DNA of 64,000 bases from an uncultured Coriobacteriaceae bacterium (GTDB lineage Bacteria; Actinomycetota; Coriobacteriia; Coriobacteriales; Atopobiaceae). The stretch spans positions 14,322 to 78,321 of the forward strand of contig CADBDT010000007.1 in NCBI GenBank assembly GCA_902793465.1, written 5' to 3'. Numbering within the stretch: position 1 is the first letter of the stretch; every line of letters starts with the position of its first letter. This document shows, piece after piece, positions 2,977-61,553 of the stretch. Made by a program: the position numbers and the translations under genes. Below the pieces are notes generated by a model. It searched no databases, had not been told where the DNA came from, and worked only from the letters and a program-made list of their open reading frames with translations.

Positions 2977-2994
2977 ATTTGTTACTCGAATACG

Positions 2995-10623: not shown

Positions 10624-10813
10624 GCGCCCGCGACGCGCTCCCGACGGCGTCATGGCTCTCGTGCATGCTCAGCGCTCGCTGCGCTCGTGATTCGCGCCCG
10701 CGGTGCGCTCGCGCTTGAGCCCGGGCTCTCTTGCATGCTCAGCGCTCGCTGCGCTCGCTCACTCGCTTCGCTCGTGATTCGCTGCAAGAGAGTCCGGGCT
10801 CAAGCGCGAGCGC
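10624..10813. repeat. Composite intergenic repeat: 69-bp tandem duplication plus a 31-bp inverted repeat
   Basis: GCGCCCGCGRYGCGCTC and GGCTCTCKTGCATGCTCAGCGCTCGCTGCGCTCG each recur with period 69. The arms 10705-10735 and 10783-10813 are complementary at 30 of 31 positions. Confidence 0.85.
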
Positions 10814-10830: not shown

Positions 10831-10868
10831 GGGACCACGGGTTAGGGACAGTCCCTTAGTTGTGGTCC
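10831..10868. repeat. Hairpin spanning the rsmB stop codon, related to the outer arms of the 52.5-kb repeat
   Basis: GGACCACGGGTTAGGGAC-A-GTCCCTTAGTTGTGGTCC. It shares GACCAC..GGGACAGYCCC..TAAG with 52510-52535, and GTTTGTGGTC with 50391-50400. Confidence 0.7.
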
Positions 10869-13142: not shown

Positions 13143-13688
13143 CTATTCGTCTGCCTCCACGTCGCCAGGACGCGCGCCCGCCGCGAGCGCCTCCTCGAAC
13201 TCATGCATCTTGCGCATGCGGGCGAGCGGCTTGAGGTGATCCACCATGGTGATGCCGTGCAGGTGATCTATCTCGTGTTGCAGGCATATTGCCATAAGGT
13301 TGTCCGACGCCTCGTAGCGCATAAGGTCGCCATCGAGGTTGCGTGCCTCCACCACCACGTGGCTGGGGCGCGATACGCGCACCGTAATGCCGGGGAACGA
13401 GAGGCAGCCCTCGCCGGTCTCGCGCTCCTCTCCGTCCGCAACGATTATGCGTGGGTTAACGAGCACGTAGGGGTTCTTCTTGGTCTTGGTGTAATCCACA
13501 TCGATAACCACCAGCTGCACGAGCTCTCCGACCTGCGGAGCAGCCAGTCCGCAGCCCTCGGTCGCATACATGTCTTCGAGCATTCTTTCCGCCAGGCTTC
13601 GAATGTCGTCGGTTATCTCCTCGATGGGGGCGCACTCCGTCTTGAGCCTGTCGTCGGGCGCCAATACGATGTCGTCAATAGATGCCAT
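13143..13688 (-). CDS. def: Peptide deformylase
   Basis: GLAAPQVG, EGCLSFPG and HEIDHLHG motifs. Confidence 0.95.
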   Translation of the reverse strand: MASIDDIVLAPDDRLKTECAPIEEITDDIRSLAERMLEDMYATEGCGLAAPQVGELVQLVVIDVDYTKTKKNPYVLVNPRIIVADGEERETGEGCLSFPGITVRVSRPSHVVVEARNLDGDLMRYEASDNLMAICLQHEIDHLHGITMVDHLKPLARMRKMHEFEEALAAGARPGDVEADE

Positions 13689-13799
13689 GGGCCAACCTCC
13701 TGTTGGTCTTTCGTTCAGTCGTGGTAATTGTAACCGTCACAGGCTGGTTTTTACCAACGTATCGAACCTCCACATACAATGCGGTGTGTACCGTACGGC

Positions 13800-13921
13800 G
13801 CCGGGGGCCGGGACGGGGACGGCCCAGAAGTGGCCCGTGCTCAAACAGTCCTCGCATCGCTTCGCTCGCTGCGGAACTGCGCGCGGGCTCACTTCCGGAC
13901 CGCCCCCGTCCCGGTCCCCGC
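13800..13921. repeat. Family-1 structured repeat, copy A (forward orientation)
   Basis: Cores CCGTGCTCAAACAGTCCTC and TGCGGAACTGCGCGCGG, flanked by G/C-rich complementary arms (GGGGGCCGGGACGGGGACGG / CCGCCCCCGTCCCGGTCCCC). It ends 24 nt after the priA stop. Confidence 0.85.
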
Positions 13922-13945
13922 TTTATCCCTTTATGCTTGCTCCAC

Positions 13946-16264
13946 TTACATAAGGTCATGGGCATCCACGTCTACCGCAACGCTTATGCCATGGGGGATG
14001 GACGCTTCGCGCATGCACGTGCCCAGCAGCTCGCCCACGTTCGACGCTACGGGAGACCTAACTACAAAGTGCTTGCGTACCCTGTCCTTAATGCGGGACT
14101 TTATGCAGTCTGCCGGACCAACGACCTCCCAGCCGCACTCCGATCCCACGCACTCTCTTACCCGTTGGGCAAGACTTTGGCAGGTGGACTCCACCTGTTT
14201 GATGTTGCGTCCCCATACCGTAACGTTGGAAAGTCGCGTATAGGGCGGATATCCGGCCGCAGACCGCTCGGAAAGCTCCGCCTCCAAAAAGAGAGACCTG
14301 TTGTGCTGGACTGCCGCTTGTATGGCAGGGTGAGCCGCCCAATATGACTGCACGATTACCTTGCCACGGCGGCTACCGCGACCGGCGCGACCCGCAACCT
14401 GCTCCAGCAGGTCGTATGTTCTCTCCCCCGCCCTAAAGTCGGGAAGCTTAAGGGTGGTGTCGGCATTTATTACACCCACAAGCGTTACGTCGGGAAAATC
14501 GAGTCCCTTGGCTATCATTTGCGTGCCAACGAGTATTGCGCACTCGGACACGTCGAAACTTTCCAGTATACGCTGGTGAGCGCCCTTGGCCTGCGTTGTG
14601 TCCGCGTCCATTCGGAGCACGTCTACGGCAAGGCCTCCGCACTCGCGCGCTATGAGCGCATTGAGCTCGTCTTCGACTCGCTGCGTTCCCACACCAAAGG
14701 CGCCCATGTACCTGCTTCCACAGTTGGGGCACTGCGTTGCCGGATCCGGCCAGGCACGTATGGGCCACCCTCGTCCGCAGGTATGGCACGCTAGCATGTG
14801 ATTGCGTTCGTGATAGGTAAGCGAGGTGGAGCAGTGCGGACATTCCGGCACACATCCGCACTCGCGGCACATAAGAAAGCTGGCAAAGCCACGTCGGTTG
14901 AGCATGAGCACGGCCTTTTCGCGCCGCGCGACCACGTCTTTAATTGCCTCCACAAGAGGCGCAGAGAACACCGAGCGTCCTCCCCTGCTAAACTGCTCGG
15001 CCATGTTTACGGCCTGCACCTCGGGCATCATAGCCTCACCAGGCCGTTCGGGCATGCTCACGCGCGTCCAATGCACGCCTCGCCATGTAGCGCCATCGCA
15101 CCTGTAAAGACTCTCGAGCGAAGGTGTGGCCGATCCGAGCACCAGCGCGCACCCGCGCATGCGCGCAAGCTCTGCCGCAACCTCGCGCGCATGGTAGCGC
15201 GGCGCATTGTCCTGCTTGTACGAGCCCTCGTGTTCCTCGTCGATTATTATGAGCCCCACGTTGGAAAGGGGCGCAAAGAGCGCCGACCGCGCGCCAACGA
15301 CCACACGCGCCTCGCCGCGTCGCACCATATCCCATTGATCGTAACGCTCCCCCACCGAAAGCCTTGAATGAAGCACCGACACGCTTTGGCCAAACCGTGC
15401 CCTAAAGCGCCCTACGGTCTGTGCGGTAAGCGAGATCTCGGGCACGAGCACAATGGCGCCCTTGCCATCTAGAAGCGACTCCTCGATTGCCTGCAGGTAC
15501 ACCTCGGTCTTTCCGGAGCCCGTAACTCCGTCCACGAGCACGACGTCACCCAACGCCCTACGACGGGCGTCGCGTATGGCATCGAGTGCGCAGACCTGCC
15601 CATCCGTAAGCGACTGCGGCCTTGGCGATCGTGCAGACGAAAGCGTGGTGTGTTCCTGACCCCTAACGTGGCGTCTTTCCACAACCTCCACGATACCCTT
15701 TTTCTGCAGTCCGCGCACCGTGGCAGACGCACCCGCAATAATGGCATTGAGCTCGACCATGCGCACCGGCCCGGCTTGCAGCGCATCTATAAGCGCTCTT
15801 TGCCGCGACGCATTTGCACGCGGAACGTATTCTGCCGCGGCGTCGGACAGCATTACCCATCTGTCGTCTATGGGCTTCGCGCCCCTGTCCTCCAGCTCCC
15901 ACTTTCCCGATTCGTCGTTTCGACGTACGCGCACCTTCTGCCCGGGAGCAAGAAAAAGTCGCAGTGCGTCGCATGGATTGCATGCGTACTCGCGAGCTAT
16001 CCAGTCTGCGAGCTTAGAGCCAACGGAGTCGAAAGCAGACTCTGCCAAAAGCTGTTGTACGGGAAGTATGCTCGTAGTTGTCATCTGTGCTGGAACAGTG
16101 TCGCACAGAGAAACCACATAGCCGACAACCGGCCTCTTTCCAAACGTTATCAATACCGTCGCACCTACGTCCACACGGCCTTCGAGCTCTGCGGGTACCG
16201 CATACACGTAGGAATCATGCAGCGCTCTGGTTGATATGTCGGGAATAATGGACGCATATTGCAT
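13946..16264 (-). CDS. priA: Primosomal protein N' (replication restart helicase PriA)
   Basis: Walker A DGVTGSGKTEVY, DEEH box IIIDEEHE, and zinc cluster CRECGCVPECPHC...CHTCG. Start set at ATG 16264 (GGTGG 6 nt upstream); a TTG at 16276 is an alternative. Confidence 0.93.
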   Translation of the reverse strand: MQYASIIPDISTRALHDSYVYAVPAELEGRVDVGATVLITFGKRPVVGYVVSLCDTVPAQMTTTSILPVQQLLAESAFDSVGSKLADWIAREYACNPCDALRLFLAPGQKVRVRRNDESGKWELEDRGAKPIDDRWVMLSDAAAEYVPRANASRQRALIDALQAGPVRMVELNAIIAGASATVRGLQKKGIVEVVERRHVRGQEHTTLSSARSPRPQSLTDGQVCALDAIRDARRRALGDVVLVDGVTGSGKTEVYLQAIEESLLDGKGAIVLVPEISLTAQTVGRFRARFGQSVSVLHSRLSVGERYDQWDMVRRGEARVVVGARSALFAPLSNVGLIIIDEEHEGSYKQDNAPRYHAREVAAELARMRGCALVLGSATPSLESLYRCDGATWRGVHWTRVSMPERPGEAMMPEVQAVNMAEQFSRGGRSVFSAPLVEAIKDVVARREKAVLMLNRRGFASFLMCRECGCVPECPHCSTSLTYHERNHMLACHTCGRGWPIRAWPDPATQCPNCGSRYMGAFGVGTQRVEDELNALIARECGGLAVDVLRMDADTTQAKGAHQRILESFDVSECAILVGTQMIAKGLDFPDVTLVGVINADTTLKLPDFRAGERTYDLLEQVAGRAGRGSRRGKVIVQSYWAAHPAIQAAVQHNRSLFLEAELSERSAAGYPPYTRLSNVTVWGRNIKQVESTCQSLAQRVRECVGSECGWEVVGPADCIKSRIKDRVRKHFVVRSPVASNVGELLGTCMREASIPHGISVAVDVDAHDLM

Positions 16265-21396: not shown

Positions 21397-21984
21397 ATGC
21401 TCTTGACTACTCGTATGCTCGAAGACCGGCTTTCCGAGTATGGGAATCCACGCAATAGAATAGGCCGTATGGTCGACGCCGGTGAACTCATACAAGTTCG
21501 CCGGGGGCTCTACGAGACGGACCGCACGGTGGCAGGTTGCGGTTTGGCGCCAAGCATTTATGGTCCCTCGTACCTTTCGTTCGAGTACGCAATGGCGCGT
21601 CATGGCCTCATTCCCGAAGCCGTGCACGTCTTTACATCTGCCACCTGCGCAAAGCGCAAGTCGCGTAGCTACGAGAACGCATACGGCCGGTACGACTACC
21701 AAGACGTTCCCGTCTCCGTGTTCTCCCTTTGTGTGGAGTTGGTACGCGAGCCAGGCTACCCGTACTGGATTGCGACCCCCGAGAAGTCGCTCTGCGACAA
21801 GCTGTACAAGTTGCCACCCGTTGCAAACAAGGTGGAGTTCGAGACGCTTCTTCTCGACGACCTTCGGATTGGCGAGGATTCCCTAGGGTCGCTCGACTTG
21901 AATGCAGTCGCAATGTTGGCGCGGCGCTATCGCTGCCGCAACGTAATGCGCCTCGCCAGCTACCTCAGGGGGATGCGCCGATGA
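21397..21984 (+). CDS. abiEi: AbiEi-family type IV antitoxin (transcriptional regulator)
   Basis: GELIQVRRGLYET...PSYLSFEYAMARHGLIPE...ATPEKSLCDKLY matches the AbiEi pattern. Start at ATG 21397 (AGGAGG upstream). ATGA overlap with the next gene. Confidence 0.85.
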   Translation: MLLTTRMLEDRLSEYGNPRNRIGRMVDAGELIQVRRGLYETDRTVAGCGLAPSIYGPSYLSFEYAMARHGLIPEAVHVFTSATCAKRKSRSYENAYGRYDYQDVPVSVFSLCVELVREPGYPYWIATPEKSLCDKLYKLPPVANKVEFETLLLDDLRIGEDSLGSLDLNAVAMLARRYRCRNVMRLASYLRGMRR

Positions 21985-22862
21985 AAACCATGCTCGACGC
22001 CATGCTTGAACCCTACGAGTCATCTACAGCCGAGCAGCGCAAGCTGGCGCTCAGGCAGGTCGCCCAAGAGGTTATTCTCTGCGGCCTGAGCCGTGCGGGG
22101 TTCTTCGGTCCCGCCGCGTTCTACGGAGGAACAGCCCTACGTATCTTTTACGGCCTCGACCGCTTTTCGGAGGACATGGACTTTTCGCTGCGGCAGCCAG
22201 ATGCGAATTTTGACCTTGGTCCATATCTCGCTTCGGCCGAACGAGAGTGCGAGGCTTGGAGCCTTCATTTCCATGCTGAGGAAAAGCGCAAGACGGGCAG
22301 GTCTGCCATCAAGTCCGCGTTCCTCAAGAGCAATACGCGCGAATGCCTGATCACGCTGTTCTCCGACGACGGAGTGGCGAATGCAATAGCCCCTGGCGAG
22401 CTCTTGCGCATAAAACTTGAGCTCGACACCGACCCCGCACCACATGCGACATTCGAGAGACAATACCGTCTTTTGCCGTCGCCCTACGAGGTCGGCCTCT
22501 ACGATACACCGTCGCTCCTTGCGGGCAAGGCACATGCTGTCATAGCACGCGCATGGAGGTCACGCGTCAAGGGGCGCGACCTCTATGACTACGTGTTCTA
22601 CCGCTCGAGAAACATCCCCGTTAACGTGGCGCATCTAGGGGCAAAGCTGCAGCAGACCGGCCAGGTTGCGTCGGGCCAGGATTTTGGTTTGGATGACGCG
22701 ACCCGGCTCCTGTGCGAGCGCTTCGAAAGCATAGACTATGTCCAAGCCAAGGCAGATGTCCTGCCGTTTATCCGTGATCCACATTCCCTTGACGTCTGGA
22801 GCGCGGACTTCTTCTGCTCCATTACCGAGGAGCTTTCCGAAGCGATTGCGGATGCTAACTAG
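21981..22862 (+). CDS. abiEii: AbiEii/AbiGii-family nucleotidyltransferase toxin
   Basis: FYGGTALRIFYGLDRFSEDMDFSL is the family signature (GGTAL...R.SEDLDF). Start refined to ATG 21981. Confidence 0.9.
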   Translation: MKTMLDAMLEPYESSTAEQRKLALRQVAQEVILCGLSRAGFFGPAAFYGGTALRIFYGLDRFSEDMDFSLRQPDANFDLGPYLASAERECEAWSLHFHAEEKRKTGRSAIKSAFLKSNTRECLITLFSDDGVANAIAPGELLRIKLELDTDPAPHATFERQYRLLPSPYEVGLYDTPSLLAGKAHAVIARAWRSRVKGRDLYDYVFYRSRNIPVNVAHLGAKLQQTGQVASGQDFGLDDATRLLCERFESIDYVQAKADVLPFIRDPHSLDVWSADFFCSITEELSEAIADAN

Positions 22863-22904
22863 ACGAGGCTGGCCTAGCAAGGGGGAGTAACCCTCTTGAT
22901 AGGT

Positions 22905-25274
22905 TCAGATCTGGTCGAGCATGCCCACGCCCCACTCTGCCACGCGCTCGCGCATGCCGTCCACGTCCAGGACGCCGTAGGCAAAGCCCTTGCGTACGAG
23001 CTCGGACGGCACGTACTCGTCGTACTTGTCGAACACCGGCACCTCGGCGGGATACAGGAGCTCCAAGGGGTCGAAGTCCTGCAACGCAGCGTTTTGCAGT
23101 GCGTCCAAAAACTCCTCGGCACCCGCCTTCATCCTAAACTGTATAAAGTACGGCCGCGACACGTCCACGCCCTTAATGCCCAGGCTTGCTGGAAGACGGA
23201 GCTTGATTACCCGCTCCAGCGCCAGGAACGCGTAGGTACCCAGCCAGGGAAAGAGCGCCCACATGTCCCCTCCCAGGTTGATGAGCGGGGCGCGCGTAAT
23301 CCCCGCGTTCATAGCCACGGTCCGTGCATGCGCCAGCCTCGCGCGGGCGTTCTTGCGCAAATAGGCATAGTCCTTGTGCTCGCGCAATACCTCGCGCATG
23401 CGTTCGAGCACGCGCGTGTTAATGTCACCAGGGCATTCTCCGAAATATGCCGGCACCTTTCCGCGAACCTGCGTGCAGTACACAAGCCTGCGCTTGTGGT
23501 CTATCTCCTCCACAATCCACACGTGCCCCGCTATGGCGAGCTTCTCGCCAACCGGCGGCGGCTGCACCACGGTTCCGAGCTCCTGGGAATCCGAGCGGAC
23601 AGTATACTCCTCGCTTTCCACAAACACACCGTAGAACCTAAAGTTGTTGGTCACGCGCTCGCCTGCCAGACCCACAATGAGCCCACCCGTCTCCGTGCGC
23701 TCTATGTGGTCCATATCCAGCATGTGTTGCAGAAGAACGCGATAGTCGTCCTGGCTCACGTTTGAGAAATACGCCAGACTCAGAACGCGGCTGGCCAACC
23801 CAGCGGGACTCAGCTCCCCGCTCGAGGCAAGCGTTGCCATGGTCTGATGATACAAAAGGCTATACGGCAGGCGGTCCGGGCGCGGTGGCTCCACCCAACG
23901 CTCCTCCACGTAGAGCTGAACCAACGCTATGCCCTGCAAGAGCTTCCAAGGTATGGTCTCGCTTACCATCGCGCGCGGCTCTGGCGGGTCTTCGCGCATT
24001 ACAAACCACATCTCGGGCGGCTCGCCGCGCCTTCCGGTCCTGCCCATGCGCTGCAAAAACGCGCTAACCGTAAAGGGCGCATCTATTTGGAAGGCCCTCT
24101 CCAGCCTCCCGATGTCTATGCCAAGCTCGAGCGTTGCCGTCGTGCAGGTGGTAAGGGCAAGCTCCTCGTCGCGCATGAGGTCCTCCGCCGTCTCCCTAAA
24201 GCTGGACGAAAGATTGCCGTGATGGATTAGAAAGCGGTCAGGTTCCCCGTTTGCCTCGCAGTAGCTTCGCAAGGAGGTCGTAACGGCCTCGCAGTCCTCG
24301 CGCGAATTGGAGAAGACGAGGCACTTGTGTCCCTGCGAGTGCTCGTAGATGTATGCGATGCCAGGATCGGCGTTCGCAGGAGCGGGGTTAGCGTCGGATT
24401 CGAGGGCATCGGCTTGCAAAGTTGCCGCTTCGACGACAGAGGCATCGCCTCGTTCTGGCGTTGGCGTATCGCCAGGCAGTCCAACCGGTTCGACCTTCTC
24501 CACGATGGCGTCCACATGCAAAGAGCCCCCGGCAGAACGCACCGCCCCCACTTGCTCCGTGGCCTGGGGGCCGTAGGTGTAAAAGTGCTCCATGGACAGG
24601 CGCCAGACCTGCCCCGCCTCCTCCACCCGAGGAACGATGGTGTACCTCCCCGTTCCCTTGGACAAGATCCTGCCGCATGCCTCAGGGTCGCCAATCGTCG
24701 CAGAGAGCCCTATTCGCCTTGGATTGCAGCGTGCCATGCGTTGCAATCTTTCCAGCAGGCACAACGTCTGCCCACCGCGATCTCCCCTTAGCAGCGAATG
24801 CACCTCGTCGATTACCACAAACCTCAGGTCACAGAACAGCTTTGGCACAACCGCATGCCTGTGCATGAGCATTGCCTCTAGCGACTCCGGCGTTATTTGC
24901 AGCACACCCCTGGGCTTCTTTACCATGCGTGCCTTATGCGATGCGCTCACGTCGCCGTGCCAGTGCCACACCGGTATTCCCGCATCGCGACAAAGGTCTT
25001 CGAGCCTGTAGAACTGGTCGTTTATGAGTGCCTTAAGGGGCCCGATGTAGAGCGCGCCAATGGAGGCTGGCGGGTCTTCGTCAAAGAGCGTGAGTATGGG
25101 AAAGAATGCCGCCTCGGTCTTGCCCGATGCGGTGGAGGATGTAAGCAGGACGTTTTCGTCCGTGTTAAAGATGGCATCTCCTGCAGCCACCTGAATACCC
25201 CTGAGCGACTCCCAGTCGTGGGCATAAATGAAGTCCTGCACAAACGGCGCATAGCGATCAAATACGTTAGACAT
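22905..25274 (-). CDS. sngC: DEVH-box superfamily-2 helicase (Lhr-like); putative Shango SngC
   Basis: Walker A TASGKTEAAF, DEVH box VVIDEVHSL, SAT motif LSATIG, and helicase-C motifs (MGRTGRRG). Third gene of the TerB-N / ATPase / helicase triad. Confidence 0.8.
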   Translation of the reverse strand: MSNVFDRYAPFVQDFIYAHDWESLRGIQVAAGDAIFNTDENVLLTSSTASGKTEAAFFPILTLFDEDPPASIGALYIGPLKALINDQFYRLEDLCRDAGIPVWHWHGDVSASHKARMVKKPRGVLQITPESLEAMLMHRHAVVPKLFCDLRFVVIDEVHSLLRGDRGGQTLCLLERLQRMARCNPRRIGLSATIGDPEACGRILSKGTGRYTIVPRVEEAGQVWRLSMEHFYTYGPQATEQVGAVRSAGGSLHVDAIVEKVEPVGLPGDTPTPERGDASVVEAATLQADALESDANPAPANADPGIAYIYEHSQGHKCLVFSNSREDCEAVTTSLRSYCEANGEPDRFLIHHGNLSSSFRETAEDLMRDEELALTTCTTATLELGIDIGRLERAFQIDAPFTVSAFLQRMGRTGRRGEPPEMWFVMREDPPEPRAMVSETIPWKLLQGIALVQLYVEERWVEPPRPDRLPYSLLYHQTMATLASSGELSPAGLASRVLSLAYFSNVSQDDYRVLLQHMLDMDHIERTETGGLIVGLAGERVTNNFRFYGVFVESEEYTVRSDSQELGTVVQPPPVGEKLAIAGHVWIVEEIDHKRRLVYCTQVRGKVPAYFGECPGDINTRVLERMREVLREHKDYAYLRKNARARLAHARTVAMNAGITRAPLINLGGDMWALFPWLGTYAFLALERVIKLRLPASLGIKGVDVSRPYFIQFRMKAGAEEFLDALQNAALQDFDPLELLYPAEVPVFDKYDEYVPSELVRKGFAYGVLDVDGMRERVAEWGVGMLDQI

Positions 25275-25342
25275 GGCCCACCCTCAACCTCAACTTATAA
25301 GTTAGCGCTTGGAGTCAAGCTCCCCTCATAGCGGCGTTGCCC

Positions 25343-26680
25343 CTAGATGGTGAACTCGGCATATTCGGAGCTCGCGGCCTCGCCCTCCTCGCCCTCGGGA
25401 CGCGCGTGCACAAAGTCGCCCGACCCAAGAAGCCCCGCAACGGTAATGCTTGGATCCTGCCACATTATGTCGAGCATCTCAATAAAGTCGCGAATGACCT
25501 CGCGTGGCGTTATGTGCGACTCCGCCCCCACGCGCCCGAACTCAAGCTGCAGGAACACGATAAGGTCGTCTTCCGTAAGGGTGCGAGTGTAGCCAAACAG
25601 GTCGGCGTGGATGTTGGCCAGCTTTTCTACCAGCACCAGAAGCTCCTCGTGCGTGAGGGGCTGAAGGCGAATTACGGGAGCCAGGAGGTCCACCATGCCC
25701 TCGCGCCCGAACCTGCCCTGCGTGAGCCTGGAGCGCAGCGCCTCGTAGGAATACAGCCCGCGACGCCGGTCCTCCACGCACTGCGGCGTTCCGCTCATAA
25801 TTACACCCAAGTGTTCCGCCCTGCCCTGCAGGGCGTCATTGTACATGGTAAGGATCTTTTCGTAGTTGTATTGGCGCGAAATGGCATGTGGGATCTTGTA
25901 CAGATTTACCAGCTCGTCCACGAGCACCACGAGCCCTTCGTACCCTGCGCCCACCAAGAACCGCGCAAGCAGCTTTATGTAGTCGTACCAATCGTCATCC
26001 GAGATTATGCAGCCTACCCCAAGCTCGTTCTTTGCCTCGGTCTTGTTGCGATACTCCCCACGGAACCACTTTGAGACGTAAGACTTGGTCTCGTCGTCTG
26101 CCTCCACATGCGCGCGGTAGTACATGGAGAGCACGCGCGCGAAGTCGAACCCGTGTACCATCTGCTGCAGGTCGTCTATAACCACGTAGATGCGACGTTC
26201 CACCTCGGCGTTGAAGCCGGGGTCGTCCGGAGAGATTCCGTCCTGCGCGACGGCACTCTGTATGCCAGCGATCCAGCGATCGAGCACAAGCGTAAGCGCA
26301 CCGCCCTCCGGCCGGGTCCTGGTGGAAAGGTTGCGAACGAGCTCTCGGTACGTGGCAAGCCCCTGTCCCTTTGTTCCCTGCAGCCGGCGCTCCGGGGAAA
26401 GGTCTGCATCTGCGACCACGAAGTTCTTGCCCATGGCATGGTTTCGAATCGTCTGAAGTAGGAAGCTCTTTCCGCTGCCGTAGCGTCCCACTACGAACCT
26501 AAACGAAGCTCCACCCTCGGACACTATGCTCAAGTCCCGCAGCAAGGCTCCTATCTCTGCCTCGCGCCCAACCGTAATGTAGGGCAGTCCCACACGGGGC
26601 ACCACACCGCCCTTGAGGGAGTTTATGAGAACTGTTGCTATGCGCTTTGGTACGCGCTGACCCTGCTTGGTATCCGCCAT
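25343..26680 (-). CDS. sngB: DUF2791-like P-loop ATPase; putative Shango SngB
   Basis: LINSLKGGVVPRVGLPYITVGREAE...VVGRYGSGKSFLL (Walker A) and LVVLVDELVNL (Walker B). Start refined to ATG 26680 (GAGGTGG upstream). Confidence 0.78.
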   Translation of the reverse strand: MADTKQGQRVPKRIATVLINSLKGGVVPRVGLPYITVGREAEIGALLRDLSIVSEGGASFRFVVGRYGSGKSFLLQTIRNHAMGKNFVVADADLSPERRLQGTKGQGLATYRELVRNLSTRTRPEGGALTLVLDRWIAGIQSAVAQDGISPDDPGFNAEVERRIYVVIDDLQQMVHGFDFARVLSMYYRAHVEADDETKSYVSKWFRGEYRNKTEAKNELGVGCIISDDDWYDYIKLLARFLVGAGYEGLVVLVDELVNLYKIPHAISRQYNYEKILTMYNDALQGRAEHLGVIMSGTPQCVEDRRRGLYSYEALRSRLTQGRFGREGMVDLLAPVIRLQPLTHEELLVLVEKLANIHADLFGYTRTLTEDDLIVFLQLEFGRVGAESHITPREVIRDFIEMLDIMWQDPSITVAGLLGSGDFVHARPEGEEGEAASSEYAEFTI

Positions 26681-26802
26681 AATCCACCTCGCTCGTTCGA
26701 ATACACAAGTATACACTGCGTACACGTGTTCGTAAAGTACGTAAACGAGACGGTTTGAGTGAGGACTCACGGCACCCTGCAACGTGCCCGAATGGAAGTA
26801 GC

Positions 26803-28470
26803 TTATCCCAGCATATCCTTTACGTCCTGTATGTAGTCCTCCACGAGCACGGGGCTTCCCCCGTCGAACTCCACCACGGTGTCGCCTATCTCGTCTAGCA
26901 GCGCCTCGTTAATGGAGTCTGCGGCAAGCGTAAGGAACATGTCGTCATACTGCTCTAGAGGGCTTCCGTCCAAGAGCGCCAGCAACAGCTGCAGATGCTC
27001 CTCGCTGAGGCCTAGCGTGTTGGCTGGCGCCCTCTGTGCCTGAACCTCAACCACTACTTGAGGTGCAGCTTTAGGCTTTTCCGCCGGCTCGATGTCCATA
27101 TCGTCCTCGGTGAGTAGCGCTTCTTGCGTACGAATGGACGCGTTGCGTATTCCGGCAAGAGAATTGCGATCTATTCGTATGTGAGCGGCCTCCGCTGCCT
27201 TCTTGCGCGCCAAATACGCTTCGATTTCCTCGTCCACGAACTTTGCCTGATACTTGGGAAGCGGCTTCTCCTTAAGCGGGTGCGCATCACCAAAGGCGAG
27301 TCTGGTACGTGCGTCTATGGCGTGCAACAGGGCTCCGAGCTCTTTGCTCTTATCCGTACGTCGGCATGGGTACTCGCGCGTCCAAAAACCACGACTGCAT
27401 ATATAGACCTCGCCAGCTGACGCCTCGTACCTTACGTCCTCATGCCGCTTTCCGGTCCAGAAAACGGCCGAAGGGAACATAAAGTAGCTTCTGCCAGTGG
27501 CTGGCCCAAAGAGGCCGTCGATGTAGTTGGTCTTGCGACGCTTGTTGCAATGCGCCACCATGCGGGCAAACACGTTGCAGGTAATCTGTGCAACAGCCTC
27601 TTTGTTCTCGCGTACAAAGCGAGATCGGTCTGCACGATAGCGCGATAACGCCACAAGAGCATCCAGCAACTCTTCCTGCGTAGGCATCCCGTCCAAGTGC
27701 TTAACGGGCCATTCGGAAAGGCGGTTGTCCAGCAGCACCCGCTCGGCTGCCCTGAGCACTACGACATTCTTTGATCCAAAGTCGTTGGGCAGAGGGGCGA
27801 GCAACTGGGCGTCCAGGCCATGGAACACAATATAGTCGTGCCTCCATCGCCGCATGTAGGAATCAAACGCCTGGCTTATACCCTTATATTGCTCTGCAAA
27901 TTCGTCTAGCTCGGCAAGCCCCGGCATGCCTTCTGGGGCTCCGATGCCGCATAGCAGCTCGTAGGCGTGCACGAACAAGAAGGGAAGCGTCGCGTATGTT
28001 ACCTCTCCGTGCCTGAGTCGCGTTCTCCAACCAAAATAGCACCTAAGCTGAAAGTCGCTCATTGCCTCGTACGTTGGAAAATAACAGTCGAAGGAGCACT
28101 CCCCGTCAAAGTCGTCCTCGAAGTCCTCCATCAGTTTGCCCTGCTCGTAAAAGAGCCTCCAGCTAGAAGTTCCACCACGCCTTGGGGAACCTGCCATGCG
28201 ACGCATTTTGCGGTACTCTGGCGGCAGCGCACGCCTTGCGCGGGCCTGTTGGAGCCTGGCGTGCAAATCGGGATGTACGCCCACTCCCCTATCGACGTCT
28301 TTAATAGCCTCGTCTTCGGAAAAGAGCGCTTCCTGATGCGGACACGCCGTCTTGCGCGCCCCAGCACGCAAGATGGGCTCGTCCGTATACGTTCGCTCGG
28401 AAAAAATGCGCGAGTTTACGTACCGCTCATCAGACAAGATCTGGTCTACGATGTCTTGCGCGCGCGTCAT
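26803..28470 (-). CDS. sngA: TerB-N / TerB-C domain protein; putative Shango SngA
   Basis: YFPTYEAMSDFQLRCYFGWRTRLRHGEVTYATLPFLFVHAYELLCGIG fits TerB-N. The C-terminal LLALLDG...ADSINEALLDEIGDTVVEFD fits TerB-C. ATG 28470 is used as the start; a TTG at 28476 is an alternative. Confidence 0.78.
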   Translation of the reverse strand: MTRAQDIVDQILSDERYVNSRIFSERTYTDEPILRAGARKTACPHQEALFSEDEAIKDVDRGVGVHPDLHARLQQARARRALPPEYRKMRRMAGSPRRGGTSSWRLFYEQGKLMEDFEDDFDGECSFDCYFPTYEAMSDFQLRCYFGWRTRLRHGEVTYATLPFLFVHAYELLCGIGAPEGMPGLAELDEFAEQYKGISQAFDSYMRRWRHDYIVFHGLDAQLLAPLPNDFGSKNVVVLRAAERVLLDNRLSEWPVKHLDGMPTQEELLDALVALSRYRADRSRFVRENKEAVAQITCNVFARMVAHCNKRRKTNYIDGLFGPATGRSYFMFPSAVFWTGKRHEDVRYEASAGEVYICSRGFWTREYPCRRTDKSKELGALLHAIDARTRLAFGDAHPLKEKPLPKYQAKFVDEEIEAYLARKKAAEAAHIRIDRNSLAGIRNASIRTQEALLTEDDMDIEPAEKPKAAPQVVVEVQAQRAPANTLGLSEEHLQLLLALLDGSPLEQYDDMFLTLAADSINEALLDEIGDTVVEFDGGSPVLVEDYIQDVKDMLG

Positions 28471-28479
28471 AGCCAAGCT

Positions 28480-29797: not shown

Positions 29798-29830
29798 GCA
29801 CGGCGGGGACAGCTCGGGTGCGTCGTGGAT

Positions 29831-29910
29831 GGGGTGCCGCTTGGGGATACTCCCCCTGCGGTACATTGTCCACAATGTACCGCAGGGGGAGTATCCCCAA
29901 GCGGCACCCC
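29831..29910. repeat. Family-2 structured repeat, copy 1: perfect 39-2-39 palindrome
   Basis: GGGGTGCCGCTTGGGGATACTCCCCCTGCGGTACATTGT-CC-ACAATGTACCGCAGGGGGAGTATCCCCAAGCGGCACCCC. I verified the arms as exact reverse complements. It ends 23 nt after the helicase stop. Confidence 0.92.
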
Positions 29911-29933
29911 ACCTTACGGGAGACCACACCCCT

Positions 29934-34024: not shown

Positions 34025-34060
34025 TCTCCCCCTTAGACAGTCCAAAACTCGTAGTGGCAA

Positions 34061-34172
34061 GCCGTGCCGTAAGGGGATACTCCCCTACCGGGTACATCGC
34101 GGATAGCCTTCCTCATGCATAGATGCCCTGCTCGCGATGCATCCGATGGGGAGTATCCCCTTACGGCACGGC
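34061..34172. repeat. Family-2 structured repeat, copy 2
   Basis: 25-bp perfect outer stem GCCGTGCCGTAAGGGGATACTCCCC / GGGGAGTATCCCCTTACGGCACGGC. Inner GGGTACATCGCG box and a 28-nt centre. It ends 16 nt after the isochorismatase-family stop. Confidence 0.9.
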
Positions 34173-34188
34173 TCGGGTCGGGCGCACG

Positions 34189-38030: not shown

Positions 38031-38300
38031 GTGCCGTGTGGGGATACTCCCCTATGGGTACATCGCGGATAGGCCAGCCCGCAAAGGAATCGCTACTTGC
38101 GATGTACCCGACGGAGAGTATCCCACCGCCATTTAGTTAGCGCTGTGCACATTGGGGATACTCCCCTGCGGGTACATCGCGGATGAGCCGTACTCCAACG
38201 AAAGCCCTACTCGCGATGTACCCGATGGGGAGTATCCCCTATGTGCACAGCTCCCCCGGACCCTTAACTAAATAGCGGTGGGAGTGCCCCCTCACGGCAC
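38031..38300. repeat. Family-2 structured repeats, copies 3 (38031-38126) and 4 (38142-38251), in a nested composite
   Basis: Two units, each GGGGATACTCCCC...GGGTACATCGCGGAT...CGCGATGTACCCGA.GG.GAGTATCCC. There is an extra inverted pair, CCCACCGCCATTTAGTTA (38122) / TAACTAAATAGCGGTGGG (38265), and a degenerate third right arm ending in CACGGCAC at 38300. Confidence 0.88.
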
Positions 38301-46586: not shown

Positions 46587-46697
46587 GGCCACCTCCACAC
46601 TTTAGATGCTTGGGTTACATGTTACACGTTGCACGCACCAACGGAGCGCATCAGCACGAAAATATGTAGCACGGCCCTGCTGCGTTCGTGCACAGAC

Positions 46698-46891
46698 GGT
46701 AGGCCCAGGGGGAGCCGAGACGGGCGGCGGTATGGCGAGGCGGCGTGGAAGAGGCCGTGCTCAGGCAGTCCTCGCGCGATTAGCGAACACGAAACCTTAA
46801 TGGTTTTCCCGCGCTGCGGAACTGCGCGCGGCCTCGGTCCATGCCGCCTCGCTTCATACCGCCGCCCGTCTCGGCTCCCCCTGGGCCTACC
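46698..46891. repeat. Family-1 structured repeat, copy B (forward; full length with apical module)
   Basis: The outer 37 nt of each arm are exact reverse complements (GGTAGGCCCAGGGGGAGCCGAGACGGGCGGCGGTATG). The cores are present, with a 42-nt apical insert. It ends 18 nt after the MFS stop. Confidence 0.92.
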
Positions 46892-46909
46892 GCCTGACTG
46901 GACTCTCTA

Positions 46910-48109
46910 TTACTGGCCTTTTGCGCCTGCAGTCAGACGCCGAATGCCGTAGACCATGAGCAGCGTACCGCACGTAGATACGACAACGCCAACCACCAGC
47001 ACCGGGCGCACCTCCAGAAACTGGAACAACCATCCTCCCAGAAAGCTCGAAAGGAGCATGCCGACGGCGCCCGACGCTGCAAACACCGCCTGGCCCTTGT
47101 TGCGGTCTGCCTCGCCCACGTAGTCGTTGGCAAGATACACCGTGCCAGTAAATATTGCGGCAAAGCTTACCATCTGCAGGGCCATGGCCCCGTAGAGCAT
47201 AAAAGCGTTGCTAGTAAACAGGACAATCGCATGCTTTACGGTAAAGAACACGGAGGCGGCTACGATGATCTTTGGAACGCCAAACTTCCGCATGAGCAAC
47301 GAGAACCCAAACATCGAGGGCAGCTCGGACATGGCCTGTATGAAGAGGGCTGTTCCCTGAATTCCCTCCACGTCGCTTGTTGCAAAGGTGCCGATGATCT
47401 TTGCCATATAGGTCTGGATCAGATAGTGGCAGAAGTACATGAGGACCAACGCCAGCACCACCAGCGTAACGTCCTTGTATCGAGAGAAGAACTGGAATAT
47501 GGATATCGGCTTTTCCACATTCTCGTGCTTGTTGTTGCCCGCCATGTCTTTTGGGGCATCGGGCATGAGCATGACCGCCACAAGCGTGAACACGGCACTC
47601 ACAATGCACCATACGGGCAATGACGTACGACCCATTGCTGCCCACAGCCTACCCAGAACCGCGGACCCAACGGCAAAGGCGGCCGACCCCAACCCACGAC
47701 AAAGGCCATAGTTTATTACTCCGCCGGCCTTCTCGTATATGAACGCCATGCCGTTGAGCAGCGGAACTCCCACGCTTGCGCTCATGAATGCGATTACGAC
47801 GACAGGCAGGATCAAAAAAGCGCCTGCCGGCACCACCAACAGCAGCGCACAGAACGCCGCGCAAACGACCATGGAAGCAGCGATGAACATCTTTTGCGTT
47901 AGCTTGCTCGAGCGATCAACGATGTCCGCAACAAACGGCCCCACGAATACTCCCAGCAGGCTGATGAGCGATATGGTAGTTCCCGTTGTCGCATCGTCGA
48001 AGCCGCTCTGCGAGAGGAAGTTGTAGGCGAACCCAAAGGTGGCGCTAGCCAACAGCATAGATCCTATGGTAACGAGCGAATACCTTACGTTGAGTAGCTT
48101 GTAGCTCAT
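46910..48109 (-). CDS. MFS transporter
   Basis: About 12 hydrophobic segments and MFS-like loop motifs. Start refined to ATG 48109 (MSYKLLNVRYS). Confidence 0.8.
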   Translation of the reverse strand: MSYKLLNVRYSLVTIGSMLLASATFGFAYNFLSQSGFDDATTGTTISLISLLGVFVGPFVADIVDRSSKLTQKMFIAASMVVCAAFCALLLVVPAGAFLILPVVVIAFMSASVGVPLLNGMAFIYEKAGGVINYGLCRGLGSAAFAVGSAVLGRLWAAMGRTSLPVWCIVSAVFTLVAVMLMPDAPKDMAGNNKHENVEKPISIFQFFSRYKDVTLVVLALVLMYFCHYLIQTYMAKIIGTFATSDVEGIQGTALFIQAMSELPSMFGFSLLMRKFGVPKIIVAASVFFTVKHAIVLFTSNAFMLYGAMALQMVSFAAIFTGTVYLANDYVGEADRNKGQAVFAASGAVGMLLSSFLGGWLFQFLEVRPVLVVGVVVSTCGTLLMVYGIRRLTAGAKGQ

Positions 48110-48234
48110 CTCTACCCCTATGCATGCGCTTGCAATTCTCTTTTGAATATGGGGATAGATTATGGGGCATAACCACATGAGAGCTACATGCCATAAGTTA
48201 TAAGGTAGCCGGACCACCGCAAATGGGTAATCGG

Positions 48235-50093: not shown

Positions 50094-50216
50094 GTGGCAG
50101 CTCCCGTTTGCTCGAACCTTTATGCACCCATTCTAGCATGCACTGCAGCAACTGCCCGCAATGCCTCCCAAACCACAAATAAGGGGTACTACGAAAGCCC
50201 ATGGTGGTAATACATG

Positions 50217-50363
50217 CCTGCAGACCGCCCCACCCATCAGCCCGACCAGCGAGGCGCTGTAGAAAGCAGCCGCGCGCAGTTCCGCAGGAACGAGGACTGT
50301 TTGAGCACGGCGCTTATCCACGGTGCCTTGCTGGTCGGGCTGATGGGTGGCGCGGTCTGCAGG
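50217..50363. repeat. Family-1 structured repeat, copy C (reverse orientation; minimal apical loop)
   Basis: Arms CCTGCAGACCGCCCCACCCATCAGCCCGACCAGCGAGGC / GCCTTGCTGGTCGGGCTGATGGGTGGCGCGGTCTGCAGG. Cores are in reverse complement. It lies in the divergent rpe/glgB intergenic region. Confidence 0.9.
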
Positions 50364-50476
50364 CACGACACGTCGTCGAACCTGTAGCCCGTTTGTGGTC
50401 AGTTATTGCACGGTTTGCCCTCTTGCATGGTTTGGAGTACTATGCTTCGGCTACGTGCAAACAGGCGGGAGGCTTC

Positions 50477-52267
50477 ATGAATTTAGAAGACTTTTATGCT
50501 GGGGCGGATTTCTTTGCCCATACCTGGCTGGGCGCACACCTAAAAGACGGTGGCGTTACGTTTAGAACATACGCACCTGCAGCCGAGCATGTTTACGTTC
50601 GCACCAACTGGGACGACGTGCCCATGCAACGCGTTGCAGACGGGAACATATGGGAAACCCATGTGGACGGCATGGGCCCAGGTGACCCTTATACCTACAT
50701 AATCCATCACAACGAAGAAGCCCACGAGCACTGCGATCCCTATGGCTATGGTATGGACCTGCGGCCGTCGCATCGCTCAATCGTGCGCGACCTTACGTTC
50801 GAATGGCACGACGACGGTTGGATGTCCAACCGTTCTACCTGCTACGACGAGCCCCTCAACATCTACGAGCTTCACCTTGGCAGCTGGCGCAAACGCAGCG
50901 GTGTACACCAGAGCACGTATGTTGGCGACTGGTTTACCTATGCGGAGATTGCCTATCAGCTAATTCCCTATCTCAAAGAGACGGGATACACCCATGTGGA
51001 GTTCCTGCCACTCATGGAACATCCCTACGACGGCTCGTGGGGGTACCAGCCAACGGGATTCTTCTCGCCCACCAGCCGCTATGGCACCGCTCACCAGCTC
51101 ATGGAGCTTGTGGACATGCTCCACTGCGCGGGCATCGGGGTTATTTTGGACTTCGTGCCCGTGCACTTTGCCACGGATGACTACGGCCTGGCGCTCTACG
51201 ACGGCACTCCCCTCTATGAGCCTACCGATCCCAAAGAGGCCAAGAGCGAGTGGGGTAGCTATAACTTTGCGCACGAGCGCGGGGGTGTTCGCTCCTTCTT
51301 GCAGAGTGCGGCCAACTACTGGCTTGGCGCGTATCACTTTGACGGCCTGCGCATGGACGCCATAAGTCGCGTAATCTACAAGCACGGCGACAAGAGCTGC
51401 GGCATAAACGCCCCTGCGGTTGAGTTCGTACGCAACATGAACGGCGGGCTCAAGTACCTTAATCCAAACACCATGCTCATAGCCGAGGACTCGACCGACT
51501 ATCCCGGAGTTACCACACCCGTTGATCGAGGCGGCCTTGGCTTTGACTACAAGTGGGACATGGGATGGATGAACGACACGCTCAACCTCTTTCGCACGCC
51601 ACCCAAGGAGCGCAGCGACCACTACAACAAGCTGTCTTTCTCAATGATGTACTACCCGCACGAGCGCTATTTGCTCTCGCTCTCGCACGACGAGGTCGTG
51701 CACGAGAAGGCCACCATAGTGCAAAAGATGTGGGGCGACTACGACCTCAAGTTTCCGCAGGCACGAACCCTTGCCTTGTACATGTATGCGCATCCGGGAA
51801 AGAAGCTCAACTTTATGGGTTGCGAGTTGGCACAGCTACGCGAATGGGACGAGTGCCGCGAGCAGGACTGGTCGCTTAGGCAATACCCCCTGCATGACTC
51901 GTTCTACCGCTTTTGCGTAGAGCTCAACGACCTGCACGCAAACCACCCGGCGCTCTGGGCAAACGACTACGACAGCCAGGGTTTTGCATGGAGACAGGTA
52001 TCCGACCCCACCAATGTGGTCTATGCCTTCGAACGCCGCAGCGCAAGCGAGCGAATGCTCTGCGTACTCAACCTCTCGGACAAGGAGCTGCCAGGCTATG
52101 TGGTAAGCCTCGACAACGTCCGTCGCGCGCAGATTCTGCTCAACACCGACTGGAAGCGTTTTAGCGGCTCGACGTACGAGGACGACCGTCGTTGGTTCAA
52201 GCTTGCAAACAACCAGCTAACCTGCACGCTGGCGCCTTTCTCTGGTCAGCTCTATCTAATGGAATAA
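50477..52267 (+). CDS. glgB: 1,4-alpha-glucan branching enzyme
   Basis: GH13 conserved regions DFVPVHF, GLRMDAISRV, AEDSTDYPG and SHDEVVH. Start refined to ATG 50477 (GGCGGGAGG upstream). The ORF-track start at 50201 runs through the repeat. Confidence 0.95.
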   Translation: MNLEDFYAGADFFAHTWLGAHLKDGGVTFRTYAPAAEHVYVRTNWDDVPMQRVADGNIWETHVDGMGPGDPYTYIIHHNEEAHEHCDPYGYGMDLRPSHRSIVRDLTFEWHDDGWMSNRSTCYDEPLNIYELHLGSWRKRSGVHQSTYVGDWFTYAEIAYQLIPYLKETGYTHVEFLPLMEHPYDGSWGYQPTGFFSPTSRYGTAHQLMELVDMLHCAGIGVILDFVPVHFATDDYGLALYDGTPLYEPTDPKEAKSEWGSYNFAHERGGVRSFLQSAANYWLGAYHFDGLRMDAISRVIYKHGDKSCGINAPAVEFVRNMNGGLKYLNPNTMLIAEDSTDYPGVTTPVDRGGLGFDYKWDMGWMNDTLNLFRTPPKERSDHYNKLSFSMMYYPHERYLLSLSHDEVVHEKATIVQKMWGDYDLKFPQARTLALYMYAHPGKKLNFMGCELAQLREWDECREQDWSLRQYPLHDSFYRFCVELNDLHANHPALWANDYDSQGFAWRQVSDPTNVVYAFERRSASERMLCVLNLSDKELPGYVVSLDNVRRAQILLNTDWKRFSGSTYEDDRRWFKLANNQLTCTLAPFSGQLYLME

Positions 52268-52509: not shown

Positions 52510-52673
52510 GACCACAACGGGGACAGCCCCTAAGAAATGGTCGAAACCGCGAGGTGCCACGGAAAGCAGCCGCGCGCAGTTCCGCAACGAAGTGAGGACT
52601 GTCTGAGCACGGCGCTTGTCCATGGCGCCGAAAGGTTTCGACCATTTCTTAGGGGCTGTCCCCGTTTGTGGTC
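52510..52673. repeat. Family-1 structured repeat, copy D (reverse orientation)
   Basis: Arms GACCACAACGGGGACAGCCCCTAAGAAATGGTCGAAACC / GGTTTCGACCATTTCTTAGGGGCTGTCCCCGTTTGTGGTC (one-nt indel). Cores are in reverse complement. It ends 4 nt after the gpsA stop. Confidence 0.92.
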
Positions 52674-55702: not shown

Positions 55703-55820
55703 GGGGCCACCTTTCCTGCGTGTTACGTTCAGGGGATGATTTTATCACGTTCACCGACGCGCCCTGTATCTGCACAGATAAGCCAAAGAGCTGGCTTTCA
55801 AACAACGAAACAACGACGGA

Positions 55821-55997
55821 GGCCGCCATCGAACCCGGGAACGGACGAGGGGGCGGCAGTGCGGAGGATGCCGTGCTCAAACAGTCCTCGCGCGAAAAGC
55901 TGTTACGAACCTTCATGGGTAACTCGCGCTGCGGAACTGCGCGCGGCACTCCTCCGCACTGCCGCCCCCTCGTCCGTTCCCGGGTTCGATGGCGGCC
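55821..55997. repeat. Family-1 structured repeat, copy E (forward; full length with apical module)
   Basis: Arms of about 50 bp (GGCCGCCATCGAACCCGGGAACGGACGAGGGGGCGGCAGTGCGGAGGA and its complement). Cores plus a 41-nt apical insert similar to copy B. It ends 20 nt after the DUF512 stop. Confidence 0.92.
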
Positions 55998-56017
55998 GCT
56001 GTTATGGTTTTCCCACA

Positions 56018-61218: not shown

Positions 61219-61413
61219 AGGCCGATTGAGTACAGCATGCGTAGCTCTGTGTATAGCCTTTGCTCCATAGTGTCCCCCGCAAACAATTGGTTAACGCACC
61301 GGCGCCATCTTGCAGCTTGTAACGTTAATAACCAAGATTGCTGCGCAAACGCCCACCTAACGATAAAAGAGTCTAACAGTTAATGCCTTCTGGCATTTCG
61401 AAAAAAGCGTTCT

Positions 61414-61507
61414 GATTGGGGATACTCCCCTACGGGTACATTGCGGGAATCCCCGCTCGTTATTAGAGGACTATTCGCGATGTGCCCGATGTGGAGTATC
61501 CCCAATC
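61414..61507. repeat. Family-2 structured repeat, copy 5
   Basis: GATTGGGGATACTCCCCTACGGGTACATTGCGG...CGCGATGTGCCCGATGTGGAGTATCCCCAATC. It ends 46 nt after the rluB stop. Confidence 0.88.
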
Positions 61508-61553
61508 GGCACAGTCCACGTCACGTCAAGCAAAAAGCTCACGAAAGCGCATG

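Follow-up and report, generated by a model that had tools for sequence, protein, structure and literature searches.

Palindromic intergenic repeats with an invariant asymmetric core inside copy-specific, self-complementary arms in Coriobacteriia and Myxococcota

Between the DUF512 gene and der of an uncultured Coriobacteriaceae bacterium, the spacer at positions 55800-56015 folds into a long hairpin (-97.9 kcal/mol, z = -16.6). An earlier note on the 64,000-nucleotide stretch of DNA that contains it (the window) described this hairpin as one of five copies of a repeat with an invariant asymmetric core. This raises the question of what kind of element the hairpin is, and whether its structure is maintained at the level of DNA or of RNA.

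Searches of the window recovered the five copies at the places and on the strands described. The left core, CCGTGCTCARRCAGTCCTC, has exactly five exact matches in the window, with 0.04 expected by chance. The right core, TGCGGAACTGCGCGCGG, also has exactly five, with 0.96 expected by chance, and five or more matches were found in none of 100 shuffles. Allowing up to three mismatches in both cores produced no additional matches in the window. A covariance model was built from 35 copies, located in other genomes or in the window, and the window was searched with filters off. The same five copies are found at 59-74 bits, in a strand-specific manner (Table 1). The remaining matches in the window all score 28.6 bits or less. 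They have equal scores on both strands, indicating that they are other palindromes. These results, together with the wide distribution described below, establish that the repeats form a genuine family, whose members carry an invariant asymmetric core inside a hairpin.

Table 1. Positions of the five copies and their parts in the window
Feature	Positions	Strand	Description
Copy between priA and def	13802-13920	+	68.1 bits
Cores of this copy	left 13835-13853, right 13870-13886	+	16-nt P2
Arms of this copy	13802-13832 / 13890-13920		31 nt, 87% complementary
Copy after the MFS gene	46693-46896	+	59 bits
Cores of this copy	left 46755-46773, right 46815-46831	+	41-nt P2
Arms of this copy	46693-46734 / 46855-46896		42 nt, 98% complementary
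Copy between rpe and the glgB-like gene	50213-50367	-	66 bits
Cores of this copy	left 50292-50310, right 50270-50286	-	5-nt P2
Arms of this copy	within 50215-50365		64 nt, cores included, 83% complementary
Copy past the gpsA stop codon	52510-52673	-	74.4 bits; 4 nt past the stop codon
Cores of this copy	left 52594-52612, right 52570-52586	-	7-nt P2
Arms of this copy	within 52516-52666		64 nt, cores included, 81% complementary
Copy between DUF512 and der	55808-56010	+	full hairpin between DUF512 stop (56018) and der start (55702); 69 bits
Arms of this copy	55808-55868 / 55950-56010		61 nt, 92% complementary
Left core CCGTGCTCAAACAGTCCTC of this copy	55871-55889	+	
Apical variable hairpin P2 of this copy	55890-55929	+	40 nt, carries the ACGAACCTTCATGG module
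Right core TGCGGAACTGCGCGCGG of this copy	55930-55946	+	

The gene content of the window consists of housekeeping genes and a small defence island. Four copies lie 4-24 nt after stop codons, as had been noted: those of priA (24 nt), the MFS gene (13 nt), DUF512 (7 nt) and gpsA (4 nt). The fifth, at 50217-50363, does not follow this pattern. It is located in the spacer of the divergently oriented glgB-like gene and rpe, and no stop codon precedes it. The measured apical inserts (16, 41, 40, 5 and 7 nt) agree with the range of 5-45 nt given before, and the two copies with long inserts both contain the module ACGAA(A)CCTTMATGG. Within each of the five copies, the arms are 81-98% complementary over 31-64 nt. 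The arms had also been called unrelated between copies, which is only partly correct. The copies at 50217-50363 and 52510-52673 have an inner arm of about 20 nt in common, and homologues of the outer arms of the latter form the arms of a multi-copy family found in another Atopobiaceae genome, RGIG5869.

A single unit is a rod-like hairpin or cruciform of 73-235 nt, composed of inverted-repeat arms, an internal loop and an apical hairpin. The outer stem, P1, measures 8-92 bp (median 24). The internal loop is formed by CCGTGCTCA-R-ACAGTCCTC on the left strand and TGCGGAACTGCGCGCGG on the right strand, and its irregularities, which are U·C mismatches, an ARAC bulge and an A bulge, are constant. 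The conserved asymmetric core amounts to 36 nt. Within it, conservation among 108 model-aligned copies is 97% or more for GCTCA-R-ACAG and GGAACT-S-CGC. The apical hairpin, P2, is 5-77 nt long and free in sequence. One example is GGCC-UUCG-GGCC. Another is a class of 36 nt whose 10-bp stem has a different sequence in almost all copies and is paired in all of them.

The pairing of the arms is actively maintained. In 35 copies with a short P2, 86% of the cells are paired, compared to 70.5% in shuffles. Double changes are found in 181 cells, compared to 68.5 in shuffles and 53-70 in slid controls, so self-pairing is kept despite sequence change, as the earlier note had proposed. The core pairs in these 35 copies do not vary at all. 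A variant core, CAGCTTCG ... CTGCAGAACT, has U-A in place of one C-G pair. As the U·C mismatch and the G·U pair are both kept, the variant supports the model of an extended hairpin.

Comparison with close relatives revealed that the centre of the hairpin flips. Both orientations of the copies at 46693-46896 and 13802-13920 are found among strains 96-99.8% identical to the window in aligned contigs. Over 7.7 kb, one of the contigs compared, L148, shares 99.3% identity with the window. At the 46693-46896 locus, L148, L144 and L111 share the outer arms of the window and have the centre inverted, and L150 has the orientation of the window. The inverted segment, about 120-140 nt long, extends over P2, the two cores and the mismatched inner arms, whose sequences switch sides as exact reverse complements. 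The crossovers are located in the copy-specific arms and spare the conserved core. SNPs in the flanks of this locus separate the window and L148 from L150, L144 and L111. Both orientations occur inside each of these groups, indicating at least two independent inversions. At the 13802-13920 locus, L159 carries the entire hairpin in the opposite orientation. In both L158 and L159, the arms combine the sequences of the two window arms as mosaics. The flips were found by comparing contigs, not reads. The flipped contigs come from different assemblies, and the k-mers of 87-141 are longer than the perfect arm stretches, making an assembly artefact unlikely.

The centre inversions and the mosaic arms indicate that the two arms recombine with each other, and this recombination flips the centre. 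The inversion is most likely independent of a recombinase, since the inverted repeats are copy-specific, the segment is only about 120-140 nt long and no invertase is found nearby. Among the roles suggested before, that of an element that regenerates palindromes fits these observations best.

Orthologous copies have diverged considerably in their arms. Between the window and L111, the arm on the DUF512 side is 69% identical, and an equal score was reached in only 2 of 500 shuffles. P2 is 77.5% identical, and the core is 94% identical, differing at the RR positions only. Despite this divergence, the arms of the window's own DUF512-side copy are 92% complementary to each other. Inter-arm recombination or template switching would explain how arms can be copy-specific and self-complementary at the same time. 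In L111, a rearrangement junction is located within an element, and DUF512 and the MFS gene converge on one hairpin. The MFS side of this junction is 92% identical and the DUF512 side 82%. The junction hairpin folds poorly (z = -3).

Comparison of orthologous spacers also revealed that the element is present in some lineages and absent in others. In L115, a relative whose DUF512 is 79% identical, the genes are ordered as in the window (DUF512-der-plsY-gpsA-rpe-aminotransferase-CT398-coaBC), but no element is present. Its spacers measure 108, 120 and 62 nt and contain no long palindrome at the positions orthologous to the hairpins. A short terminator-like hairpin is present in its gpsA-rpe spacer. 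In L162, Def is identical to that of the window and the def DNA is 99.5% identical, and the 95-nt priA-def spacer contains neither an element nor a palindrome. The priA end of L162 is only 82.7% identical to the window, indicating that L162 is a recombinant allele. The empty site contains the sequence of neither arm, which means that the arms did not come from a palindrome already in the host or from an inverted copy of the flank. The units thus insert together with their arms, and the suggestion that they insert into pre-existing palindromes finds no support in the palindrome-free sites of L162 and L115. Neither a target-site duplication nor the footprint of a precise excision was observed; the only empty allele (L162) is located in a divergent recombinant haplotype. 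In the genomes with recent bursts, RGIG5869, JB083 and U9523, whole arms are common to the copies, with compensatory differences between them. The MFS and glgB-like genes of the window, which are bordered by copies, are extra relative to L115 and L113. A mobile cassette of MFS gene and hairpin was considered and rejected, as the MFS homologue in another relative is located elsewhere and has no element.

Some of the hairpins are paired. In hairpins 30-300 nt apart, the arrangement is → ←, with the left cores outward, in 14-16 cases, ← → in none and tandem in one. The repeated unit in U9523 is an entire doublet, spacer included. Precise nesting of elements in the apical loop of another element is found in L011, L048, L080, L089 and L005. 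In an orthologous doublet of three Olsenella/Atopobiaceae species, the hairpins are better conserved than the spacer between them, suggesting that resident copies are under purifying selection.

The family extends well beyond the window. Scanning one genome per species for the left core produced at least 108 loci. Among the matches listed are 112 exact left cores, of which 76 are followed by the right core at a distance of up to 120 nt, in most cases free of mismatches. The remaining exact left cores are chance matches in coding sequence, or belong to a second element type of about 270 nt. The covariance-model scan, which had been proposed as a check, identified at least 108 copies in at least 90 loci. 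In Coriobacteriia, carriers are Olsenella, Collinsella, Enorma, Adlercreutzia, Ellagibacter, Eggerthellaceae and Atopobiaceae. In Myxococcota, they are Polyangia, Kofleriaceae and others. A few Actinomycetes MAGs, a single Omnitrophota MAG and a single Planctomycetales MAG also carry the element, as do two 'Ruthenibacterium' loci and one 'Acidaminococcaceae' locus, which may be mis-binned contigs.

No described family was found to match. In the window, Rfam gives no match at the gathering score. With gathering and permissive thresholds, searches of the window, two copies and eight loci of the 270-nt element produced only generic miRNA-precursor-like hairpins and one tRNA, in agreement with the earlier note, in which no named Rfam family was recognised; ribozymes were included. 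A tRNA/tmRNA scan found none. The core sequence, as DNA or RNA and on either strand, is absent from the literature searched, and a keyword search for REP, MITE or RAYT in the coriobacterial and myxococcal carriers returned nothing relevant. In viral contigs, 1 left-core and 27 right-core matches were found, mostly in coding sequence. None was confirmed by the model, and all are due to chance. The plasmid database contains partial chance matches only. The repeats thus form an undescribed family of palindromic intergenic repeats.

The closest analogues are REP/BIME/REPIN and ERIC repeats, and the element lacks the defining sequence features of REP, MITEs, attC sites, terminators and Rfam RNAs. 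Like REP/BIME/REPIN, it is non-coding, extragenic, mostly 3' of genes, present in high copy (5 copies in 64 kb) and in either orientation, and arranged in inverted doublets (the 14-16 → ← pairs). Both are imperfect palindromes with conserved bulges or mismatches, and both are recombination substrates. However, the units of 73-235 nt are larger than the 20-40 nt of REP, and the 5' GTAG tetranucleotide of REP/REPIN is absent from the consensus of 108 copies. Unlike REP, the conserved part is central and split while the outer stems are variable, and each member of a doublet has its own hairpin with different arms. The hosts also differ, being Enterobacteria and Pseudomonas for REP-RAYT (Y1 HUH) and Actinomycetota and Myxococcota for the element.

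ERIC/IRU repeats, found in Enterobacteriaceae and Vibrio, are about 127 bp long, and their copies keep the whole sequence. Compared by description only, they resemble the element in being long imperfect palindromes with a conserved central inverted repeat, intergenic and in either orientation, and in spreading by an unknown mechanism. By the same description they are set apart by unrelated sequence and hosts, and only 36 nt are fixed in the element. Minute hairpin-loop inversions in chloroplast spacers and the flip/flop of the terminal palindromes of parvoviruses (AAV ITR) likewise have an asymmetric centre, flanked by inverted-repeat arms, in two inverted configurations that recur among close relatives. 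These are single loci or genome ends, whereas the element is a dispersed chromosomal family with an invariant core, and AAV flip/flop arises by Rep-mediated terminal resolution.

Integron attC sites share with the element a folded single strand that is recognised (presumed for the element), extrahelical bases that give strand identity, and a variable terminal structure of a few to about 100 nt. In attC, the outer R boxes are conserved and cassette arrays lie beside the integrase. In the element, the conserved part is inner and the copies are dispersed. An attC site was rejected because the stem bases are copy-specific, the copies are dispersed among housekeeping genes and the window contains no integrase. 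Invertons of gut bacteria, like the element, are segments flanked by inverted repeats and found in both orientations within species. A regulatory inverton was rejected on the basis of copy-specific inverted repeats, crossovers in the arms, and the lack of promoter-like sites and of a recombinase in the window. A MITE was rejected as well, since the outer ends are the least conserved, the empty allele has no clear target-site duplication and no transposase was found in the window or the element-bearing loci searched.

To our knowledge, no REP-like repeats have been described in gut Coriobacteriia (Eggerthella, Adlercreutzia, Collinsella, Olsenella relatives) or soil Myxococcota. The family gives these groups a REP-like repeat of unusual anatomy, with a conserved centre and free arms. 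It also provides a natural case of palindrome maintenance, in which the arms recombine with each other and the centre flips between strains. The elements break metagenome assemblies and mark rearrangement and gene-insertion junctions, and pipelines that scan for orientation would call them 'invertons'.

The explanation that we favour, with about even confidence, is a REP/ERIC-like family of palindromic repeats that acts at the DNA level and has its bulged core recognised by a putative trans-acting protein. Each copy would be a non-coding palindromic insertion element of the general kind of REP/BIME and ERIC repeats. Inter-arm recombination would copy changes from arm to arm, keeping the arms self-complementary within a copy and letting them drift between copies. 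The invariant asymmetric loop may be the handle for a conserved structure-specific protein acting in trans on the extruded hairpin. Candidates for this protein include a nuclease-transposase of the REP/RAYT kind and other hairpin-binding enzymes. The protein would derive the orientation from the bulges, and this would account for the invariance across phyla and for the fixed → ← order of the doublets. Effects on neighbouring genes, such as 3' hairpins and recombination breakpoints, would be by-products.

Several observations do not favour this explanation. The purifying selection on resident copies is explained by a host function no less well than by a selfish element, and a transposase site would not usually be as strict as this core, with 36 nt identical between phyla. 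The larger RNA-like element in other phyla has the left core, which hints at an RNA module. The searches for a partner were also negative. In REP systems, a cognate RAYT gene is expected in the same genome, typically with REPs on its flanks. No IS200/RAYT-like ORF was found by tblastn with approximate IS200 TnpA and YafM queries in 1.08 Mb of element-bearing loci and the window. Clustering of 541 neighbouring proteins produced only large generic families, with no gene family enriched beside the elements. The 64-kb window contains no transposase, integrase or HUH gene, and no protein candidate specifically common to Coriobacteriia and Myxococcota was found. A related and broader proposal, which we make tentatively, is that the 36-nt bulged loop is the recognition module of a conserved structure-specific system. 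This could be a new class of hairpin-borne mobile DNA with its own nuclease or recombinase, in a second partnership of the REP-RAYT kind, or a new functional nucleic-acid motif that spans phyla and is carried by palindromes able to repair themselves and to flip. The strict invariance across phyla points to a putative protein partner or activity, and a minimal hairpin of 41 nt makes direct tests possible.

An RNA-level cis element is an unlikely alternative, although several features are in keeping with it. In this case, the hairpin would act in a 3' or 5' UTR as a terminator, a 3'-end stabiliser, a small ribozyme or a platform to which a conserved RNA-binding protein binds, and the invariant internal loop would be the active RNA motif. 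Most copies are located 4-60 nt past stop codons, and 10 of the 94 spacers holding copies lie between divergent genes. An invariant internal loop amid freely covarying helices is typical of functional RNAs, and a T-rich run follows the 55808-56010 copy on the gene strand. Against this, the orientation to transcription is not fixed. In co-directional spacers, single copies are forward in 23 cases and reverse in 13, and flips occur among near-identical strains, with the two strands giving different loops. An RNA stem under selection is expected to tolerate G·U only on the transcribed strand. Counted relative to that strand, the outer arms contain 49 G·T and 46 A·C mismatches and hence show no preference. 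Relative to the core orientation, the counts are 83 and 103.

The initial count over all positions gave 144 A·C and 58 G·T mismatches, and an A·C excess corresponds to G·U on the reverse strand. This excess is confined to the semi-conserved positions 3-6 beside the core and is gone in the outer arms, and an RNA from the reverse strand was rejected on this basis. Six or more T among the 12 nt that adjoin the hairpin, on either side, are found in 8% of the 108 copies, compared to 4.5% in the background. This is not the U-tract enrichment of intrinsic (rho-independent) terminators, which were rejected as an explanation. No promoter-like sites were found inside the element. Perfect stems of 40-60 bp are also unlike known regulatory RNAs, and no Rfam family, ribozymes included, was matched. 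In a comparison by hand with the hammerhead and hairpin-ribozyme cores, ACAGUCCU was found in both the element and the hairpin-ribozyme substrate. The resemblance was set aside as unlikely to be meaningful, as the opposing strand does not fit and a loop B domain is missing.

Taken together, the mismatch symmetry, the unfixed orientation, the strain-to-strain flips and the lack of T-tracts and promoters indicate that pairing is maintained at the DNA level. They also argue against a strand-specific RNA function, and the roles of terminator and RNA stabiliser that the earlier note had listed, with structural selection on RNA, find no support in them. What keeps the RNA-module reading alive is mainly the reuse of the left core in the second element. 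This conserved, intergenic element of about 270 nt contains the exact left core in 9 loci (about 41-48% G+C) of Eubacteriales, Aminicenantes and one unclassified MAG. A right-core-like hairpin, TGCGGAACTCCGC, is located about 95 nt upstream of the left core, and a long-range helix shows compensatory changes. Coding sequence was ruled out, since reading frames are not conserved and the hairpin covaries. The eight loci searched gave no Rfam match.

Somewhat less probable again is a domesticated chromosomal site that is no longer mobile, in which the core, folded or as duplex, would be bound by a host architectural or DNA-processing protein and serve the organisation of the chromosome, much as BIMEs are bound by gyrase and IHF. 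The apparent purifying selection on each resident copy would suit such a site, as would the density of 5 copies in 64 kb amid housekeeping genes and the failure to find a transposase, and a function independent of orientation would match the tolerated flips. However, presence and absence among relatives, multi-copy bursts with identical arms and nesting indicate ongoing spread. The fixed → ← order of the doublets is not predicted by domestication, and no candidate protein was found that Coriobacteriia and Myxococcota specifically share.

A site-specific recombination site of the attC or inverton type, at which a dedicated recombinase would use the folded site to move gene cassettes or to switch expression, is very improbable: the bulged stem with variable terminal structure, the inverting centre, the extra MFS and glgB-like genes, the L111 junction, and a truncated and a full copy flanking two ABC-transporter genes in L067 would fit it, but there are no RYYYAAC/GTTRRRY boxes, arrays, nearby integrase or invertase, or internal promoter-like sequence, the crossovers avoid the conserved core, the MFS homologue elsewhere lacks the element, and most copies flank housekeeping genes. 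Two inverted units also enclose genes in L085. The genes are secD, secF and one for a tRNA synthetase; none encodes a transposase, and a composite transposon was rejected for this locus.

In the window, the MFS and glgB-like genes are bordered by family-1 copies (an invariant split core within self-complementary arms, with the apical hairpin P2). Both genes are missing in two relatives, L115 and L113, which are otherwise syntenic with the window. The glgB-like gene is flanked by a pair of like-oriented copies with common inner arms. In a Coriobacteriaceae MAG (L067), two ABC-transporter genes are located between a truncated copy and a degenerate full copy. The breakpoint of the truncated copy falls exactly at the junction of the core and P2.

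Many independent metagenome contigs have an end that falls inside copies 1, 3 or 4, or within about 70 nt of them. Coexistence of both orientations in a sample would produce such ends, as would interference of the hairpins with assembly. A homologous-recombination breakpoint is found in the priA-def spacer when contig L162 is compared with the window. Identity is 99.5% in def and only 82.7% at the priA 3′ end, and the L162 spacer does not contain the family-1 element. The DUF512-der spacer of L113 measures 1.6 kb and contains roughly 6 successive repeats (GTGCTGTAATCGCGAGCWGTGTGGG), some of them inverted, as well as ORF-like sequence that carries no annotation.

The left core is also found outside family 1. 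A conserved intergenic element of ~270 nt is present in MAGs of Eubacteriales and Aminicenantes, and in one MAG that is unclassified. Its features include the exact family-1 left core, a TGCGGAACTCCGC hairpin upstream of this core and a long-range helix that covaries. This element has no match in Rfam and no conserved reading frame, and could therefore represent either a structured RNA not described before or a related repeat.

Additional palindromic repeats are found in the window. The second family is built on GGGGATACTCCCC...GGTACATCGCG, and its outer ends are in part copy-specific. The third has the same design as family 1, with the centre CATGCTCAGCGCTCGCTGCGCTCG...GTGATTCGC, and its start, ATGCTCAG, is similar to the family-1 left core. 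Two short motifs, GACCACAAACGGG and GGGACAGYCCCTWAG, recur beside or within hairpin arms and also at a stop codon, and their counts exceed those in shuffles. A small defence-like island is located amid housekeeping genes.

Locations of the features in the window and in other loci
Feature	Location	Detail
MFS gene	46910-48217	
glgB-like gene	about 50400-52267	
Family-1 copies, L067	1096-1120 (truncated); 2964-3032 (degenerate full)	
Contigs with ends at or near copies 1, 3 or 4	L150, L151, L152, L156, L158-L161	
priA-def breakpoint	L162 1-300; window 13640-14119	
Repeat run, L113	3230-3530	
~270-nt element	L001, L025, L041, L044, L047, L074, L081, L084 (1850-2100), L093	
Second family	29830-29911	perfect palindrome, 40+40 nt, centre 2 nt
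Second family	34060-34173	
Second family	38040-38283	clustered, alternating copies
Second family	61409-61512	
Third family	10664-10813	centre occurs twice, about 10664 and 10736
Third family, second-copy arms	10705-10735 / 10783-10813	31 nt, 97% complementary
Short motifs	50388-50400; 52510-52534; 52648-52673; 10841-10859	
Defence-like island	21729-28476	AbiEii toxin, DEAD-box helicase, BrxC/BrxD-family ATPase, TerB-N/TerB-C protein
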